UHGV virus genome: UHGV-0098506
DNA: 24,443 nucleotides
Origin: a virus
Reading direction: 5' to 3' (one strand)
The translations under genes were made by a program, and so were the position numbers. The notes under the pieces are model-generated. The model saw nothing but the letters and a program-made list of their open reading frames with translations, had not been told where the DNA came from and searched no databases. This document shows positions 2,876-8,087 of the stretch, in pieces (position 1 is the stretch's first letter; each line of letters opens with the position of its first letter).

Positions 2876-3289
2876 TCACTCTCCTTTGATGCGAATGCCT
2901 GTTGCAATGCTGTTTATGATGCTGTCAGTGCATGGGGTAGAAAGCTGGGCATCTCCAGCAATTTTCATGACCTCAACATCTGCATATCGAATACCGAGGT
3001 GTATCAGACCGGCTATACCTGACTTAAGCCGAGCATTTTCCATAAACAGATCCTTTGCCCGCTGTTTTTCTGCTTCAAGCTCAACACGCAGTTTCCCAAC
3101 CGTTAGTGCAATATCCTCGTTCTCCTGGTCGCGGCGTTTGATGTATTGCTGGTTCCTTTCCCGTTCATCCAGTAGTGCCAGCACAACCTGAGGTGTGACC
3201 TTCATACGAAATGCCAGCAATTTTTGTGGTGTGGCTGCTATTTTTATTGCTTCTGCCGCATCACGCAGTGCCTGATAGTCAATTGTCAT
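2876..3289 (-). CDS. Ea22/Ead-like coiled-coil protein
   Basis: N-terminal MTIDYQALRDAAEA is the hallmark start of lambdoid Ea22/Ead-family proteins, followed by a coiled-coil-like segment (ELEAEKQRAKDL). ATG at 3289 forms an ATGA overlap with the upstream stop. Confidence 0.6.
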   Translation of the reverse strand: MTIDYQALRDAAEAIKIAATPQKLLAFRMKVTPQVVLALLDERERNQQYIKRRDQENEDIALTVGKLRVELEAEKQRAKDLFMENARLKSGIAGLIHLGIRYADVEVMKIAGDAQLSTPCTDSIINSIATGIRIKGE

Positions 3290-3930
3290 TCTCGCCATCC
3301 TTCACAGTTGTAATCACTACAGCCTTCAAAATCATATGGGCTGTACTGCCAGGAGATTTTTCCGCAATGCGGACAATTCCAACGCACCTTCCCGCTTCGC
3401 GACTTCTTTCTTCTGTTCTGCTCTTTCAACCAGTCAGGCATGACCAAACCTGCGCCCTGAACCATTGTTCTGCGGTTAAAGTTATTGATATTGAACGTCC
3501 TGCGCTTTGCTGCATCAGCAATGGAAAATGGCAACCAAACTATTCCTGGTTCGTTTTTGTTGGCGACGCTAAAGATGGTCGCTTTACTGAAGTCATCTGT
3601 TGGCAATCCACCGTGTTGAAGCCAGTAAACATCGTTGCCGTTCCAGCTACCTTTTTTGTAGGCCACATACGCAGTGCAATCTGACTCAATCAGGCTTTCT
3701 GTAGGGATGTACTGGCAATCAACGTGCCACACTGCCATTGCATCCACGCTATCAGCGCAAACAGGCTGATCGATATCTCGCCCACAATTCCAGGCTTTTT
3801 GGGCTTCTTCCAGCGTGTAAACATGAGCGCGATCGATATCAGAACTGTAACCATTGCCGTTATGGCAATGGAATGAAGCGTTATTGCCCACAGTTTCACG
3901 CGAGCACATCATGTAAAAACGGTTAGTCAC
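3286..3930 (-). CDS. Hypothetical Cys/His-rich protein (214 aa) with C-terminal CxxC...C..C zinc-ribbon-like motif
   Basis: GTG start at 3930 preceded by AAGGAGG at optimal spacing. Sequence ends NCPHCGKISWQYSPYDFEGCSDYNCEGW. No known family recognised. Confidence 0.55.
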   Translation of the reverse strand: MTNRFYMMCSRETVGNNASFHCHNGNGYSSDIDRAHVYTLEEAQKAWNCGRDIDQPVCADSVDAMAVWHVDCQYIPTESLIESDCTAYVAYKKGSWNGNDVYWLQHGGLPTDDFSKATIFSVANKNEPGIVWLPFSIADAAKRRTFNINNFNRRTMVQGAGLVMPDWLKEQNRRKKSRSGKVRWNCPHCGKISWQYSPYDFEGCSDYNCEGWRE

Positions 3931-3947
3931 TGGCTGCCTCCTTTGCG

Positions 3948-4112
3948 CTACATCGCATTCAGATATTTGTTGTCATTAACAGAGCTGAAACTATTTCTCT
4001 TAAGCAATTCCTCTCTCGATGGCATTGGCTTTACGCGTTGGCGAATAATCATTTCTGCCGGAAGAATGCCGGGATTGTATGCAAGTCCTCTCATGGTAAA
4101 TTCCTCAGTCAT
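3948..4112 (-). CDS. Small hypothetical protein (~54 aa, [26 protein letters not shown]...)
   Basis: ATG at 4112 overlaps the stop of the upstream ORF (ATGACTGA); a second in-frame ATG at 4094 is preceded by GAGGAA. The ORF-track start at 4244 gives a longer version that overlaps the upstream gene. Confidence 0.3.
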
Positions 4113-4398
4113 TACTGATAGCGCCATAGCGTGAGCGGTAATTACGCAGGCGCGGGTCAATTTCAGGGAAGTGGGTATATGTGGCTTTGCGGAATGGTCG
4201 GATTGATGTCTGGTAAATTCGCTCGCGTTCTTCTTTCTCTGCAAGCCATATACAGTGGCGAAATTCCTTTTCCTCTTTCGTTTCCTGCGGTAGCGACATT
4301 ATCCGATCGTAGTTTTTTCTGAATTTATCCAGCACCTCCGATACGGAATTGCCGGAACAGCGGCGCGGGTCGTCCTCACCATACAGAGGCGCTGGCAT
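4105..4398 (-). CDS. Hypothetical protein (97 aa)
   Basis: ATG at 4398 preceded by AAGGA. Begins 24 nt after the ssb stop, same strand. Confidence 0.5.
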
Positions 4399-4421
4399 AA
4401 TGGAATCCTTATGTTGCTACT

Positions 4422-4820
4422 TTAGAAGGGAATTGAATCGTCGTATTCAGGATGATTTTGATGATTGCTACTTTGCTGCTGTTGGCTGTTTCCTGAAGTT
4501 GCAAATCCAATCTTTGCATTCAGTAATTCAAGAGTGATTGATTGACCATTTTGCCCCTGATAAACATCAACCCTGATGTTTTCTCCGGTAATTTCCACAA
4601 TGCCACCTTCAACAAGAACACTACGGTAGTAATCCGCTTGCGCTCCCGGCTTGGCAAATACAACGGCGCTGTAGTTTGTCCATTCTTTCTTTTTTGTCAG
4701 GCGATCGTAATACTGAACTCCAGCACGGATGTTGAATCCGATATTTTCCCCGGCCTGAAACTCTCTTGCGGGCTTGTTTAGTCTTACAGTAATCGAGTGT
4801 GCCATTAAGCAGCCGCTCAT
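4422..4820 (-). CDS. ssb: Single-stranded DNA-binding protein (SSB family)
   Basis: C-terminal acidic tail ...PEYDDSIPF matches the SSB C-terminal D-D-D-I-P-F motif, preceded by a Gln/Gly-rich linker and an OB-fold-like N-terminus. ATG at 4820 overlaps the erf stop (ATGA coupling); alternative ATG at 4805. Confidence 0.8.
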   Translation of the reverse strand: MSGCLMAHSITVRLNKPAREFQAGENIGFNIRAGVQYYDRLTKKKEWTNYSAVVFAKPGAQADYYRSVLVEGGIVEITGENIRVDVYQGQNGQSITLELLNAKIGFATSGNSQQQQSSNHQNHPEYDDSIPF

Positions 4821-5410
4821 TCTAATTCGTCTCGTCTTATGTTGTAAACGTCCTGCGCTTTGTGCTGCTCCGGTGTGCCTTCGAGCATCTTCCACGCTTT
4901 GGCGAACGCCTGTTTAAGCTCTTCCACGGTGTTTTTCTGCATTGCTGCGTCAGTGAATGCTTTTAGAACCTGTTCAGGTGTAGGTGATGGTTTTGATTGC
5001 TTTGCTGCTGCGTTCTGCTGATGTTTATGCTCGTCGGTATCTGCATCTTTCGCATCATCAATGCCGAATAAACCATTGAGGCAATACTTGCGTGCATAAG
5101 AGCTTGTAGCTCCAGTAACTTGTGCAGAATCCATTCCTTTCTTGCTTTCTTCCTCTCGTGCAAGAGCGGTTGCCGTATGACTGTTTTCGCCATCGGTAAT
5201 AGTTGCCGTGGCTTTCACGTAATACCGATCACCAATCAACACAACTTCATCGCTGATTGATAAAAACAGGCCATTCAGTAACGGCTTAACGCCTTCAAGA
5301 ATGTCTTCGCAGCTTCTGTATTTATATTTGCCGAATGAGTTGTACTGATTCTTTGGCGCGTTCAGATTCTCCTGAATGGCTGCCAGTCTTGCGTAAAATT
5401 CTTTGCTCAT
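4817..5410 (-). CDS. erf: Erf-family single-strand annealing recombinase
   Basis: N-terminus from the internal ATG (MSKEFYARLAAIQENLNAPKNQYNSFGKYKYRSCEDILEGVKPLL...) closely matches P22 Erf as I recall it. The longer ORF-track start at 5440 is a TTG. Confidence 0.85.
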   Translation of the reverse strand: MSKEFYARLAAIQENLNAPKNQYNSFGKYKYRSCEDILEGVKPLLNGLFLSISDEVVLIGDRYYVKATATITDGENSHTATALAREEESKKGMDSAQVTGATSSYARKYCLNGLFGIDDAKDADTDEHKHQQNAAAKQSKPSPTPEQVLKAFTDAAMQKNTVEELKQAFAKAWKMLEGTPEQHKAQDVYNIRRDELE

Positions 5411-5511
5411 ATGTTTGTTCTCAGAATGGACATGGCCCAAGGAAATAACGCTGGTTTAATACTTCGACTCTGGACAAATTAAGGCATACCCGCATTCCTT
5501 CGCGGTCGCCA

Positions 5512-5670
5512 TTATGGCGATACCAGAGAGCTTTCTGCGTGTACATGCGTCTCTGTAACTTGCTCTCCTTCACTGTGGTTGCAAGTGACATGAATATCTC
5601 CTTCGTTACCGATTAATTCTTTCATCTGACGAATGAATTCTTCGTCTGACCAGTTATCCGTAAAACTCAT
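5512..5670 (-). CDS. Small protein (52 aa) translationally coupled to the cIII-like gene; occupies the kil-like position
   Basis: ATG at 5670 overlaps the stop of the upstream cIII-like ORF (ATGA). The kil-like label is by position only, not sequence. Confidence 0.4.
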   Translation of the reverse strand: MSFTDNWSDEEFIRQMKELIGNEGDIHVTCNHSEGEQVTETHVHAESSLVSP

Positions 5671-5837
5671 GGACGGCCTTGTTGTTTCAAAATATCCCAA
5701 AGCTTTTCGAGCAAACTTTTCACTCTTGGTTGTTTAAAGTCTGCTCCGGTTAAAATATTTTTTCGTGAATGCTGTACCGATAAAATCGGGTTGAAAGGGC
5801 GAACCGATGCCGCCCCTGCAATAGCGAACTGTTGCAT
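5667..5837 (-). CDS. cIII: cIII-like protein (56 aa; FtsH-inhibitor family), below the 60-aa cutoff of the ORF track
   Basis: Translation MQQFAIAGAASVRPFNPILSVQHSRKNILTGADFKQPRVKSLLEKLWDILKQQGRP. N-terminus MQ-FAIAG matches lambda cIII (MQYAIAG...) and the size fits. ATG at 5837 preceded by AAGGAG. Confidence 0.6.
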   Translation of the reverse strand: MQQFAIAGAASVRPFNPILSVQHSRKNILTGADFKQPRVKSLLEKLWDILKQQGRP

Positions 5838-5912
5838 AGGATGCTCCTTCTGTTTGATTGCATAACGAAAACGCCTCGAGTGAAGCGTTATTGGTATGCG
5901 GTAAAGCCGCGC

Positions 5913-6224
5913 TTAGGCGGCTGATGTTTCTTCTTTCAGGCTTTCGAGATATTTACGTGGGTCGTCGTAACATTGGCATTCGCTGTACCAATCCACCCAG
6001 CGATCAGTAAGCCCCATCTCTGATAAATCTTCATCGGTAAGGCTCTCATCCCACATCTCAAGGCCGTTAGCATTGCAGTAATCAGGCTTGATGTTGTTGT
6101 CATACTGAAAGGCGTCATAATCAGCCAGTGCGTCCATCAGGCGAACACCCTCTTCAACACTTGCCACTTCTACGATGAACGGCTTCATCGGTACTTGCGG
6201 GATATGCCAGACACGTAATTTCAT
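5913..6224 (-). CDS. Hypothetical acidic protein (103 aa, MKLRVWHIPQVPMKPF...)
   Basis: ATG at 6224 preceded by GGAGAA, immediately after an intrinsic terminator. The longer ORF-track start at 6278 would run into that terminator. Confidence 0.55.
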   Translation of the reverse strand: MKLRVWHIPQVPMKPFIVEVASVEEGVRLMDALADYDAFQYDNNIKPDYCNANGLEMWDESLTDEDLSEMGLTDRWVDWYSECQCYDDPRKYLESLKEETSAA

Positions 6225-6235
6225 ATTTTCTCCGT

Positions 6236-6263
6236 TAAAAAAATCGCCCTCACACTGGAGGGC
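6236..6263 (-). terminator. Rho-independent terminator (tL1-like) between the N-proximal unknown gene and downstream early-left genes
   Basis: Minus strand: GCCCTC-CAGTGT-GAGGGC hairpin followed by GA and T7. A second 9-bp stem hairpin (GTGTATTCA...TGAATACAC, 6325-6352) precedes it. Confidence 0.6.
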
Positions 6264-6367
6264 AAAGAAGATTTCCAATAATCAGAACAAGTCGGCTCCT
6301 GTTTAGTTACGAGCGACATTGCTCCGTGTATTCACTCGTTGGAATGAATACACAGTGCTTATTCGTA

Positions 6368-6838
6368 CTAATAAAACACCCAGTTTTCTGTTTCTTGGTT
6401 GTGTCCAAAGTTATATTCAATATCTGGTGTTGATGTATCAATATTCTTCATCCCATCAACAAGAGTTGATACAACAGCCAAATCTTGTTTGATTCTCATT
6501 AAATGGTATTTCTTCCGGCGCAATAAACTTTCAATGGCAAGTTTCTTCGTTGGGAATGCAAAAGATCTTTCTGCATTTTTTGCTACTTTCTTAATTGCAT
6601 ATCTATTTCTCTTTTGTTTCCATTCCTGTAACCACCGATTTGGTGCTGGTTTAAAATTAACAATCCAATGCGCAGGAACCAACCATGCATAATGCTCTGT
6701 CTGATGAAAAGCTATATATTGAAGTGCGAATATTTTGATCCCATCCTCTTCAACTGCCGCATGGAATCTCCAGAAAACAGGCATTCCATCATGTTCAGTT
6801 TCTGATTCAGGAAAAGGTACGCTCCATGATTTTGTCAT
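6368..6838 (-). CDS. Hypothetical protein (156 aa), AT-rich gene directly downstream of N
   Basis: ATG at 6838 preceded by GAGGTGAG, 9 nt after the N stop. Coding region is visibly AT-richer than its flanks. No family recognised. Confidence 0.6.
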   Translation of the reverse strand: MTKSWSVPFPESETEHDGMPVFWRFHAAVEEDGIKIFALQYIAFHQTEHYAWLVPAHWIVNFKPAPNRWLQEWKQKRNRYAIKKVAKNAERSFAFPTKKLAIESLLRRKKYHLMRIKQDLAVVSTLVDGMKNIDTSTPDIEYNFGHNQETENWVFY

Positions 6839-6846
6839 ATCTCACC

Positions 6847-7146
6847 TCAAATAAGTGGTTTGCTGCCTAATTTCATTTTTTGGCGACCAACACAAGTCAC
6901 ACCCATTTCACTGCGTGGCTTGCGGTAGTAAATACGATTCTGTTTATGCTCGACTTCTTCTGCCTTCTTGCAGCGAAGGCTTCCGAGTGATGCTGCTTTA
7001 TCTGCTCTGACGCAACCAGAGAGCTTTAGCGCAATCTTTCGCGCCAGTCGCTGCTCTTGCATTGCCTGTTCACGTTGAGCCTGTCTGCGTGCTCTGCGGC
7101 GATTTCTGGCGTTATCGTCAGCCAGATATGTAATGACTACTGTCAT
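6847..7146 (-). CDS. N: Antitermination protein N (lambda-N family)
   Basis: From the internal ATG (MTVVITYLADDNARNRRRARRQAQREQ...) there is an arginine-rich motif at the N-terminus. C-terminus RIYYRKPRSEMGVTCVGRQKMKLGSKPLI parallels the lambda N C-terminus. GGAGG Shine-Dalgarno before ATG at 7146. Confidence 0.8.
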   Translation of the reverse strand: MTVVITYLADDNARNRRRARRQAQREQAMQEQRLARKIALKLSGCVRADKAASLGSLRCKKAEEVEHKQNRIYYRKPRSEMGVTCVGRQKMKLGSKPLI

Positions 7147-7159
7147 GTTGACCTCCGAT

Positions 7160-7230
7160 GAAACAACTTTGGAATTGATAGTGATTGCAAAGTTGTTTCT
7201 GGCCCCTCGAATTGAGGGGCAGAAAGAGCA
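7160..7230 (-). promoter_or_regulatory. Structured N leader: 12-bp-stem hairpin adjacent to the N Shine-Dalgarno plus a second boxA/boxB-like element
   Basis: Minus strand reads TGCTCTTT-CT-GCCCCTC-AATTC-GAGGGGC, then GAAACAACTTTG-(16 nt)-CAAAGTTGTTTC, then ATCGGAGGTCAAC-ATG. This resembles the RNase III-sensitive leader hairpin of lambda N. Confidence 0.4.
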
Positions 7231-7457
7231 TCTCGCCACCTAATAGTTCGATGCTCGGATCGATAGATTTAATTAACCTCGGTTTTGAAGTTATGCATTC
7301 ACATAAATCCTCCTGTTGCATGTGCAGCATTGGCTGTGTTTGGCGGCTGCATTTCGCCTATGGAATTGACTTTGGCGGTGACGCGCCGGGTGCTTATCTT
7401 CCGGTTGCCGTCGTGCAGCTGCACTTCACGTCACCCCAAAGCCAACTACTCTTTGGT

Positions 7458-7498
7458 TCCCGCATTTCGGCGGGACAATCCCATCAATGTTAAAGAGC
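7458..7498 (-). promoter_or_regulatory. nutL (boxA GCTCTTTAACA plus boxB hairpin TCCCGCCGAAATGCGGGA on the leftward transcript)
   Basis: The same boxA-spacer-boxB arrangement occurs on the plus strand at 9129-9172 between cro and cII. Paired identical copies in the pL and pR leaders define the nut sites. Confidence 0.65.
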
Positions 7499-7544
7499 CT
7501 GCCAATCTGTTCCGTTTGGCTACCAGCGTCCTGCTGATGGCTAA

Positions 7545-7629
7545 AGAATACTGTAGGTATTTTATTGTGTAAATACCCAAGGTATTTATTTTTGGTGAAA
7601 TAATGATAAGCAAATGAATACAAAGGATA
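7545..7629 (-). promoter_or_regulatory. OL/pL: three 13-bp operators (ATAC-N5-GTAT family) overlapping a leftward promoter (-35 TTTACA, 17-bp spacer, -10 TATTCT)
   Basis: Operator-like sites at 7548-7560, 7573-7585 and 7617-7629 share ATAC...GTAT half-sites with those in OR. Promoter hexamers on the minus strand at 7568-7573 and 7545-7550. Confidence 0.55.
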
Positions 7630-7718
7630 TTTATTTTTTTCGGTGTCTGCTTGTTCAGTGCTTTTTATGCGGGATATGTGAAGTGGATCCCGATAGCTAT
7701 TGCTGCCGGGATTATAGG

Positions 7719-8087
7719 TTAGTCAGCGAAGGTTAAGACGAGAATTACCTTAATGATGTCTGCTACAACAGACACGGCCATAGATAAACCAAAGACGATC
7801 CAAGCCACAGTGATGTCTTCACTACCATCGTATAGAGTTCCGTAATCACTGGTGTAAGGCGTAAATGTCGCGCCTTGATACAATAGGTATAAGCTTGATC
7901 CATAGAGGATAAATGCAGATATCCCTTGTATTGCTATGATCACAAGAATCATGAAACGAGCTGATCTATGCGCCCAAGCCTGGCTTATTTTTTCTGATAG
8001 AGATTTCGCAATAAAAGCATGCGCTAAGCCGTAAATTGTCGAGATTGCCAACATCCCAAAAAAGCTTGCTATAGCGGTTCCAACCAT
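7719..8087 (-). CDS. Small multi-pass membrane protein (~122 aa) behind cI on the same strand; function unknown (candidate exclusion/abortive-infection protein)
   Basis: Starts 17 nt after the cI stop with AAGGGG 6 nt before ATG at 8087; the ORF-track start at 8108 is a TTG overlapping the cI stop. Three to four hydrophobic segments (AIASFFGMLAISTIYGLAHAFI, FMILVIIAIQGISAFILYG, VAWIVFGLSMAVSVVADIIKVILVL). Confidence 0.6.
   Translation of the reverse strand: MVGTAIASFFGMLAISTIYGLAHAFIAKSLSEKISQAWAHRSARFMILVIIAIQGISAFILYGSSLYLLYQGATFTPYTSDYGTLYDGSEDITVAWIVFGLSMAVSVVADIIKVILVLTFAD

Follow-up and report, generated by a model that had tools for sequence, protein, structure and literature searches.

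In the viral genome UHGV-0098506, several reading frames of fewer than 60 codons are packed between a homologue of P22 gene 17 and the recombination genes, which raises the question of which of them are genuine genes and how their translation is linked. The window analyzed here comprises the whole 24,443-nucleotide stretch of DNA and is 96–97% identical to P22-like and lambdoid phages. On its minus strand, the genes follow the order gene 17, cIII (56 aa), orf52, orf56b, erf, the ssb-like gene and abc2 (Table 1), and the same gene order is found in the annotations of HK97, HK542, 720R6, Sf6 and HK620. In the alignment, HK97, HK542 and 720R6 are devoid of a gene 17 homologue at the place where the window has one. 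The region is very probably the part of the leftward early (pL) operon that runs from cIII to the recombination genes in an E. coli lambdoid phage or prophage, mosaic and P22/HK620-like.

As many as 79 ORFs with a length of 25 aa or more overlap the 5-kb stretch around these genes, and a frame of about 55 codons carries no significance by itself; the case for the small genes rests on homology and conservation. All of them are 98–100% identical to genes annotated in HK542, Sf6 and other phages and are, in this respect, already known. An NCBIfam search of the small ORFs gave no meaningful match for any of them, and Rfam at gathering thresholds gave no match across the whole window.

Table 1. Features of the cIII-to-recombination segment, in window coordinates.
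Feature	Position	Strand	Evidence or remark
gene 17 homologue (P22 gene 17, superinfection exclusion)	5913..6224	-	Pfam GP17 E 7e-56; upstream of cIII
Hairpin followed by T-rich tract, cIII leader	5870..5889	-	kept in HK97, HK542 and 720R6
Shine–Dalgarno AAGGAG of the cIII-like gene	5844..5849	-	6 nt before ATG; SD/anti-SD duplex −8.0 kcal/mol
cIII-like gene, 56 aa (MQQFAIAG...KQQGRP)	5667..5837	-	PHROG 550
ATGA junction, cIII stop / orf52 start	5667..5670	-	TGA 5669-5667 overlaps ATG 5670-5668
orf52, 52 aa	5512..5670	-	PHROG 2123 E 7e-42; 100% identical to Sf6 gp30
Shine–Dalgarno AAGGAG of orf56b, inside orf52	5598..5603	-	6 nt before ATG; dG −8.8
orf56b, 56 aa	5421..5591	-	PHROG 1723 E 9.4e-36; 100% identical to Sf6 gene 29
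erf (strand-annealing protein), 197 aa	4817..5410	-	Pfam ERF (PF04404) E 2e-44
Private G-to-T change (GGA to TGA)	4819..4819	-	creates the erf stop and ATGA
ssb-like gene (HK97 gp40 type), 127 aa from the conserved ATG	4422..4805	-	PHROG 44 E 8.5e-27

Annotation of the short genes and their starts

A preliminary description of this DNA, made from the sequence alone, had pointed to short genes concealed by a length cutoff and to ORF starts placed too far upstream. The second point is correct for erf (TTG 5440), ssb (GTG 4895) and gene 17 (TTG 6278), all of which are TTG or GTG extensions: in curated relatives, the starts correspond to ATG 5410, ATG 4805 and ATG 6224, respectively, and the extended starts are devoid of a Shine–Dalgarno sequence (SD; dG +0.6 for erf, −2.5 for ssb and +0.4 for gene 17). 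As to the short genes, a 60-codon cutoff conceals three real ones within 420 bases, the third of which, orf56b, had been overlooked in that description as well. Gene callers that forbid long overlaps also lose this nested gene, which is absent from the RefSeq record of HK542 and from several GenBank records. The PHROG-derived labels 'CIII anti-termination' and 'recombinase' are misleading for these small proteins. The region offers little biological news, and its practical lessons concern annotation.

The cIII/orf52 junction and the nature of orf52

The cIII-like gene would be translated from its own strong SD. Its stop codon had been described as overlapping the start of the 52-aa ORF, which is borne out by the ATGA at this junction. 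The ATGA before orf52 is kept in 158/158 related loci, i.e., in 79/79 with this cIII upstream and in 79/79 with an HK97-type kil upstream. Since the SD of orf52 is weak (dG −3.0), the gene would be translated by termination–reinitiation at the ATGA; the pair combines the features of coupled genes, namely a shared ATGA, its conservation in relatives and a weak downstream SD.

The 52-aa frame follows cIII as kil does in lambda and had accordingly been taken for a kil-position ORF, but it is Sf6 gene 30 and not kil. Searches of orf52 and orf56b against the Kil families of lambda, HK97 and P22 (PHROG, Pfam and BLASTP) gave neither a match nor an alignment, and tblastn of the three Kil types against the window returned only noise and no recognizable kil. 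In Sf6 and HK97, kil lies between cIII and gene 30, whereas in the window the cIII stop is joined directly to orf52. The co-occurrence of kil and orf52/orf56b in both HK97 and Sf6 indicates that they are not alternatives to each other.

A different likeness is with P22 Arf (accessory recombination function), for which a genetic phenotype has been described (PMC12315714). The conserved N-terminus of orf52, MSFTDNWSDEEFIR, contains an Arf-like motif, (W/F)SDEEFI, common to both proteins. Both arf and orf52 are located between cIII/kil and erf, each joined to its neighbour by a four-base overlap of the ATGA type. The hhalign comparison of orf52 with P22 Arf yielded E 6.6e-4 as a single comparison, with 27% probability and over 17 columns only; PHROG 2445, used for the Arf comparison, gave E 0.038, and the Pfam Arf model PF17585 did not match orf52.

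The tail of orf52 is unconstrained, and the same orf52-type N-terminus carries three alternative and unrelated tails, in forms of 52/56, 35/36 and 60 aa. In the part of orf52 that does not overlap orf56b, 5 silent and 9 replacement variants point to weak constraint only, and in one relative orf52 is interrupted by a stop at its codon 8 while orf56b remains intact. This variation would be expected if orf52 were not a functional protein itself, its first ~20 codons mattering instead as a coupling or leader frame that delivers ribosomes from cIII/kil towards the recombination genes, or as a conserved joint in the DNA at which mosaic exchange occurs; the tail, which varies freely while orf56b stays constant, would then simply be the other frame of hkaM/orf56b. 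We regard this explanation as possible, though not likely, given that the N-terminal 14–16 residues are conserved at the protein level in all variants, that the motif is common with an Arf protein of demonstrable phenotype, that the 35-aa form has an acidic tail end like that of Arf, and that the ATG is present in every locus.

In a separate observation, the orf52-type gene repeatedly overprints differing hkaM alleles; the 60-aa form overlaps a different HkaM allele in the same manner as the form in the window.

A private substitution at the erf/ssb junction

The product of erf matches the Pfam ERF model with 151.7 bits, against a gathering cut-off of 25. The SD of erf is weak and the gene starts 10 nt after the orf56b stop; erf would be translationally coupled to orf56b.

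At the other end of erf, the preliminary description had erf and ssb joined in the same way as cIII and orf52. An ATGA is indeed present in the window, but it results from a private substitution and is not a conserved design. In the relatives, the conserved arrangement is a TAATG preceded by GAAGGAG, and ssb is annotated from the TAATG start; there, ssb would start at TAATG behind GAAGGAG. All 61 of the 61 IMG/VR relatives with this erf/ssb junction carry GGA or GGG in place of the TGA, and their erf ends in TAATG. In the window, the G-to-T change at 4819 creates an erf stop (4819-4817) overlapping an ATG (4820-4818) in the reading frame of the ssb-like ORF. Erf is hence four residues shorter here than in its relatives, as seen in the alignment with HK97, HK542 and 720R6. 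The same change turns the ssb SD from GAAGGAG into GAATGAG, weakening it from a dG of −8.4 in relatives to −2.6 here.

Since a single substitution ends Erf early, removes the ssb SD and creates an in-frame ATG, two routes to Ssb can be envisaged. In one, coupling would start the protein at the new ATG at 4820, giving five extra residues and a length of 132 aa; in the other, the old ATG would still serve as the start, but poorly. In both cases the product ends in ...DDSIPF.

Searching IMG/VR for the exact junction sequence of the window gave no match, and among 5,426 complete E. coli genomes none matched it at 100%. A single base that is absent from the 61 relatives with the junction, from the rest of IMG/VR and from the complete E. 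coli genomes could reflect a sequencing or assembly error in the source of the window instead of a real mutation. This is unlikely in our view: finished assemblies rarely contain substitution errors, the G-to-T change is clean and has no anomalies next to it, and private point mutations are common in prophages.

The cIII-like gene

The cIII proteins of lambda and P22 (C3) and those of HK022 and HK97 are inhibitors of FtsH that protect CII. In lambda cIII, residues 14–37 form a continuous amphipathic helix that is essential for activity.

The 56-aa ORF with an AAGGAG, as claimed in the preliminary description, is present on the minus strand, and its product is identical to HK542 gp32 in 55/56 residues. 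The cIII-like identity also proposed for it is supported by three matches. The product matches PHROG 550 with E 3.6e-22, compared with 1.4e-31 for lambda cIII, 3.4e-28 for P22 C3 and 2.6e-13 for HK97 cIII; hhalign aligns it end-to-end with the lambda-type cIII alignment (88.7% probability, E 2.6e-6); and BLASTP finds a member of Pfam Lambda_CIII (PF02061) at E 1e-8. The pairwise alignment to lambda or P22 cIII, which had been suggested as a check, is only marginal (E 0.027 and 0.008, respectively).

The Pfam cIII models themselves, PF02061 (lambda type) and PF08134 (HK022 type), did not match the product at a threshold as loose as E 10; the positive controls, namely the proteins of lambda, P22 and HK97, scored 1e-26 to 1e-30. 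NCBIfam likewise gave no match to the product. Judging by its sequence, the 56-aa protein is a cIII homologue and, because it falls outside both Pfam models, represents a third sequence type in addition to those of lambda and HK022. Only two cIII classes are recognized by Kobiler et al. 2007 (PMC1838920), and the 56-aa type is not among them.

The position of the gene is that of a cIII: in a comparison across the window, HK542, 720R6, HK97, Sf6, HK620, lambda and P22, the gene follows N in the pL operon and precedes kil or the recombination genes. Besides this place, a similar size and PHROG 550, which it has in common with the cIII of lambda, P22, HK022 and HK97, the product has the termini of known cIII proteins, an N-terminal MQxAIAG and a C-terminal DIL(N/K)Q(P/Q)G(V/R)P. 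By analogy with lambda cIII, it would slow the degradation of CII by FtsH.

The helix region is where the protein departs from lambda cIII. Within the stretch that corresponds to the lambda helix 14–37 it is longer by 13 residues, Gly and Pro among them; the distal half, SLLEKLWDILKQ, is the only clearly kept part of the lambda-type helix, and the peak hydrophobic moment is lower, at 0.67 against 0.81–0.90. These insertions may have broken the amphipathic helix, in which case the ORF would descend from cIII but have lost FtsH inhibition and have a different function or none, a reading with which its absence from the Pfam models and from the two published classes would agree. We consider such a loss quite unlikely, as the gene keeps a strong SD and both conserved cIII ends (MQQFAIAG and DILKQQGRP), occupies the place of cIII in phages otherwise without one, and encodes a nearly invariant protein, with at least 96% identity in the best 80 of its 255 IMG/VR relatives.

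The orf52/orf56b overlap

orf56b lies in the +1 frame relative to orf52 and has 80 nt in common with it. Variants in this overlap were collected from loci chosen via cIII, without regard to either of the overlapping frames. Among the 18 variants, 10 are silent in orf56b and change orf52, 3 do the reverse and 5 change both, while the respective proportions expected from all possible single changes are 19.5%, 22.5% and 57.6% (binomial P = 7e-4). Substitutions in the overlap thus favour the orf56b frame. The AAGGAG and ATG of orf56b are found in 124/124 loci carrying the gene, and translation would start independently at this internal SD.

It is extremely improbable that orf52 and orf56b together encode a single product through programmed +1 frameshifting, and we reject this reading: two extra bases in the HK97 reference do fuse the two frames into exactly such a protein, the 83-aa gp42, and seven public protein clusters consist of 81–82-aa fusions, but each of the latter seven changes frame at a position of its own, a pattern consistent with random one-base deletions or errors of assembly, the two extra bases occur only in the HK97 reference among the loci examined, orf56b has its own SD and ATG throughout and stands alone in other phages including HK620, and no slippery site is evident in the overlap (by inspection only).

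orf56b as a member of the HkaM family

Profile comparison places orf56b in the HkaM family of HK620 (PHROG 1723), with hhalign of the orf56b family alignment against HK620 HkaM giving 98.4% and E 8.9e-15. Members that are 38–48% identical keep the whole frame of 56–60 aa as a stand-alone gene. A locus search with a narrower family alignment yielded only 8 loci among species-representative genomes, and a profile search with the orf56b family against 1.84 billion representatives gave no hits other than family members and low-complexity noise. The AlphaFold2 model is a helical hairpin with pLDDT 92, and a fold search of this model against BFVD and PDB found nothing below E 0.4, only generic helical hairpins.

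Two other identities were tried for orf56b and rejected. A diverged Kil was suggested by an A..(F/Y)..GD..M pattern seen by eye, and lambda Kil and orf56b are both helical hairpins of about 50 aa with a GD turn; there is, however, no sequence match and no BLASTP alignment between them, the family members have no Kil Pfam match, those scanned have no Kil PHROG match, and Kil and orf56b co-occur in HK97 and Sf6. A homologue of Arf was considered from the position of orf56b, which is exactly that of Arf next to erf, but hhalign gave E 0.32.

The gene next to orf56b is a strand-annealing gene in 31/31 readable loci, at a distance of 1–13 nt. The strand-annealing types behind the orf56b family include ERF (two types), Rad52-like and Sak4/AAA_24 (two sizes), and in Sf6, HK620 and L090 the HkaM-family gene is likewise directly upstream of the strand-annealing gene. 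The family is strictly linked to strand-annealing genes of unrelated folds. As the HkaM-type gene stays 5' of the annealing gene while Erf, Rad52-like and Sak4 proteins swap, the HkaM/Sf6-gp29 family might be a general accessory factor of phage recombination modules, independent of the fold of the annealing protein; we put this forward very tentatively and with low confidence.

A PF C-terminus is invariant in 25/25 aligned family members and in HK620 HkaM, usually as FLGxxPF. This terminus, placed on a helical hairpin, resembles the ...IPF/...PPF tips of neighbouring phage SSBs and of the host SSB. Given this likeness, the orf56b protein could dock on the proteins to which the SSB tail binds, or compete for them.

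Comparison with known systems

HK620 HkaM (NP_112046) was first labelled 'arf' by its position and later termed an orphan of unknown function. It is about 32% identical to orf56b; both are helical, both end in PF and both are encoded immediately upstream of a strand-annealing gene. HkaM differs in preceding Sak4 and not Erf, and in having no overlap with an orf52-type gene. In HK620, Sak4 and SSB account for the full recombineering activity of the four-gene module (PMC5928155), and HkaM is therefore not needed in that assay. In the annotation of Sf6, the genes of gp30 and gp29 likewise lie directly upstream of erf and overlap out of frame by 80 nt; HK97 gp42/gp42.1 and the corresponding pairs of HK022 and HK106 are further equivalents of orf52/orf56b.

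Operon Context of the Small Genes

The window is a lambdoid E. coli phage or prophage, a mosaic of the P22/HK620-like kind, with piecewise identity of 96–97% to phages phiv205-1, mEpX2, HK542, HK620 and 720R6. All genes under study lie on the minus strand in the leftward early operon, in the order gene 17, a 56-aa ORF, a 52-aa ORF (orf52), erf, an SSB-like gene and an abc2-type ORF. Positions 3000–8000 are overlapped by 79 ORFs of 25 aa or longer, so an ORF of about 56 aa is not informative by its size, and the case for the small genes rests on homology.

Features of the leftward early operon and its ORF-track starts
Feature	Position	Strand	Remarks
Gene 17	5913-6224	minus	Pfam GP17, E 7e-56
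56-aa cIII-type ORF	5837-5667	minus	MQQFAIAGAASVRPFNPILSVQHSRKNILTGADFKQPRVKSLLEKLWDILKQQGRP; AAGGAG 6 bases before ATG
orf52	5670-5512	minus	ATG overlaps cIII TGA as ATGA
orf56b	5591-5421	minus	56 aa; +1 frame relative to orf52; 80 nt shared
erf	4817-5410	minus	Pfam ERF, E 2e-44
erf stop/ATGA	erf 5410-4817; ATG at 4820	minus	ATG in frame with ssb-like ORF
SSB-like gene	3' of erf	minus	PHROG 44
abc2-type ORF	4105-4398	minus	Own sequence; abc2 annotation at same place in relatives
Upstream-extended ORF-track starts	erf TTG 5440; ssb GTG 4895; gene 17 TTG 6278	minus	No Shine-Dalgarno

The earlier suspicion that several ORF-track starts are TTG or GTG extensions is borne out by their missing Shine-Dalgarno (SD) sequences and by curated relatives, in which erf, ssb and gene 17 start at the positions corresponding to 5410, 4805 and 6224. 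A 98-aa ORF with a TTG start (3948-4244, minus) is probably another such extension, with a likely ATG near 4112 overlapping the end of abc2; in HK97 and HK620 a DUF2737 protein of 54 aa comes after abc2, and the final 54 residues of the ORF lie where that protein would be, a match of position. At 5913-6265 (minus), the homologue of P22 gene 17 separates a terminator-like hairpin (6265-6244) from the conserved cIII leader. Since the same hairpin directly adjoins the leader in HK97, HK542 and 720R6, the insertion looks like a moron.

A Divergent cIII Homologue

The 56-aa ORF, previously described as cIII-like with an AAGGAG SD, was found as described, the energy of its SD/anti-SD duplex being -8.0 kcal/mol. 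The pairwise comparison proposed as its check proved marginal (E 0.027 against lambda cIII, 0.008 against P22 C3), and neither Pfam PF02061 nor PF08134 matched, even at E 10; the control cIII proteins of lambda, P22 and HK97 scored 1e-26 to 1e-30 against the Pfam models. The cIII assignment is supported by PHROG 550, the family common to lambda, P22 and HK97 cIII (E 3.6e-22), and by profile–profile alignment to the lambda-type proteins over the whole length (88.7% probability, E 2.6e-6). A 43-aa protein from a related locus (L173), itself a Pfam Lambda_CIII hit, also aligns end to end (38% identity, E 1e-8), sharing the start MQQ(F/Y)A(I/V)AG and the very end LKQ(Q/K)GRP. Homology to cIII is well supported, and the product is predicted to inhibit FtsH.

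Compared with the L173 protein, the window cIII is longer by 13 residues, Gly and Pro among them, inside the stretch equivalent to the essential amphipathic helix 14–37 of lambda cIII. Its peak hydrophobic moment is lower, at 0.67 versus 0.81–0.90. Kobiler et al. 2007 (PMC1838920) distinguished no cIII classes beyond the two of lambda and HK022; the window protein represents a third type, already named as cIII in RefSeq (HK542 gp32). The type is common, having 255 relatives in IMG/VR, the best 80 of which show 96–98% identity.

A Nested Gene of the HkaM Family

A third small gene, orf56b, was overlooked in the preliminary description. It matches PHROG 1723, and its AAGGAG, 6 bases before the ATG, is the strongest site of the region (dG -8.8), kept together with the ATG in 124/124 related loci carrying the gene. 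Sf6 gene 29 is 100% identical, and in its annotation it overlaps gene 30 by the same 80 nt. The AlphaFold2 model is a helical hairpin (pLDDT 92; helices 7–27 and 30–49, tail less ordered), for which fold searches returned generic hairpins only.

Variants in the overlap (n = 18) were counted in loci chosen through cIII, so that the sample is unbiased between the two frames. Ten were silent in orf56b and replacements in orf52, three the reverse, and five replacements in both, these categories making up 19.5%, 22.5% and 57.6% of all possible single changes, respectively. The excess of the first category (binomial P = 7e-4, the variants not all being independent) shows constraint on the orf56b frame, the orf52 tail being not visibly constrained. 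Homologues down to 38–48% identity keep the whole 56–62-aa frame as a stand-alone gene.

In HK97, gp42 (83 aa) comprises both frames fused through two extra bases. A programmed frameshift joining them was rejected because, among the loci examined, these bases occur in the HK97 reference only, and because the frame switch of other 81–82-aa fusions in public data falls at seven separate positions, in the manner of random one-base deletions. The HK97 bases probably reflect an indel specific to that reference or an early sequencing mistake. Both gp42 and gp42.1 (2523-2774 of the HK97 locus, L001) are due to them, and they also seeded the 'recombinase' labels on these small proteins in RefSeq and PHROG.

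Over its full length, HkaM of HK620 is matched by the orf56b family alignment (98.4%, E 8.9e-15). HkaM originally received the label 'arf' because of its position and was subsequently termed an orphan of unknown function; it was not required in the HK620 recombineering assay, since sak4 and ssb gave the full activity of the four-gene module (PMC5928155). Comparisons with Kil and with Arf gave no sign that orf56b is related to either. Linkage was assessed in the window (5421-5591, minus) and in related loci L167, L170-L177, L181-L201, L090, L203 and L204. A strand-annealing protein gene begins 1–13 nt after the family member in 31/31 readable loci, not all independent, and the linkage holds in Sf6, HK620 and L090. 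The annealing genes encode ERF (two types), Rad52-like or Sak4/AAA_24 (two sizes) proteins, and near-identical family members precede different ones. In gene order, the HkaM family is strictly linked to annealing genes of unrelated folds. Its members end in PF (25/25 aligned and HkaM), usually as FLGxxPF, an end that the nearby phage SSBs seem to resemble (...DDSIPF in the window, ...NDYPPF in HK620).

The 52-aa ORF

As previously noted, the cIII stop overlaps the orf52 start as ATGA. The label 'kil-position' holds for place only: orf52 matched no Kil family, which rules it out as kil, and no kil of lambda, HK97 or P22 type is recognisable in the window. The protein has 100% identity to that of Sf6 gene 30. 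A true kil separates cIII from the orf52-type gene in HK97 and Sf6, whereas in the window an HK542-type cIII is joined to it directly. The ATGA is kept in 79/79 loci retrieved via orf56b and 79/79 via cIII, with either window-type cIII or HK97-type kil upstream. The SD of orf52 is weak (dG -3.0), and translation is likely by termination–reinitiation coupling.

The N-terminus MSFTDNWSDEEFIR precedes three unrelated tails, in forms of 52/56, 35/36 and 60 aa, the 35/36-aa form ending in an acidic run. The motif (W/F)SDEEFI is common to orf52 and P22 Arf, a weak likeness (E 0.038 against PHROG 2445; 17 columns at E 6.6e-4 in hhalign), and Pfam Phage_Arf did not match. In L090 (1668-1944), a 60-aa gene with the same MSFTDNWSDE N-terminus overlaps a quite different 62-aa HkaM-type ORF out of frame by 95 nt, followed by Rad52-like and SSB genes; overprinting thus recurs with different alleles. 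Loci L087 and L114 (1668-2972) carry the acidic-tail variant, then an ORF of 103 aa and an apparently RecT-like protein of 303 aa; they lack an HkaM-type gene, so the family seems absent from that module type.

The erf/ssb Junction

That erf and ssb are joined in the same way is true of the letters only, as their ATGA is private to the window. Relatives read GAA GGA GCG GCT GCT TAA TGG, in which erf ends in TAATG and GAAGGAG is the ssb SD (dG -8.4). At this place the window reads GAA TGA, with TGA instead of the GGA or GGG present in 61/61 IMG/VR relatives carrying the junction. Its junction 32-mer is absent from IMG/VR, and the 65-nt junction had no 100% match in complete E. coli genomes. One substitution, G to T at 4819, shortens Erf by its final four residues, leaves ssb with a weaker SD (-2.6) and creates the in-frame ATG of the ATGA. 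The ATGA reflects a mutation private to the window, or perhaps an error of sequencing, and not a conserved design.

At 4805-4822 (minus) and its equivalents in L171-L201, annealing proteins of different folds mostly end in ...AA, and the Erf modules aligned here have this end followed by TAATG, the ssb start. The boundary looks like a conserved sequence for mosaic exchange.

Comparison with Known Phages

Together, the described ORFs, SD, overlaps and extended starts are all present, so the preliminary description is accurate as gene-finding in a well-known phage module. All genes here were previously annotated in the curated genomes of Sf6, HK542, HK106 and HK620; the points of note are the third type of cIII homologue, a predicted FtsH inhibitor beside those of lambda and HK022, and the strict linkage of the HkaM family to annealing genes of unrelated folds.
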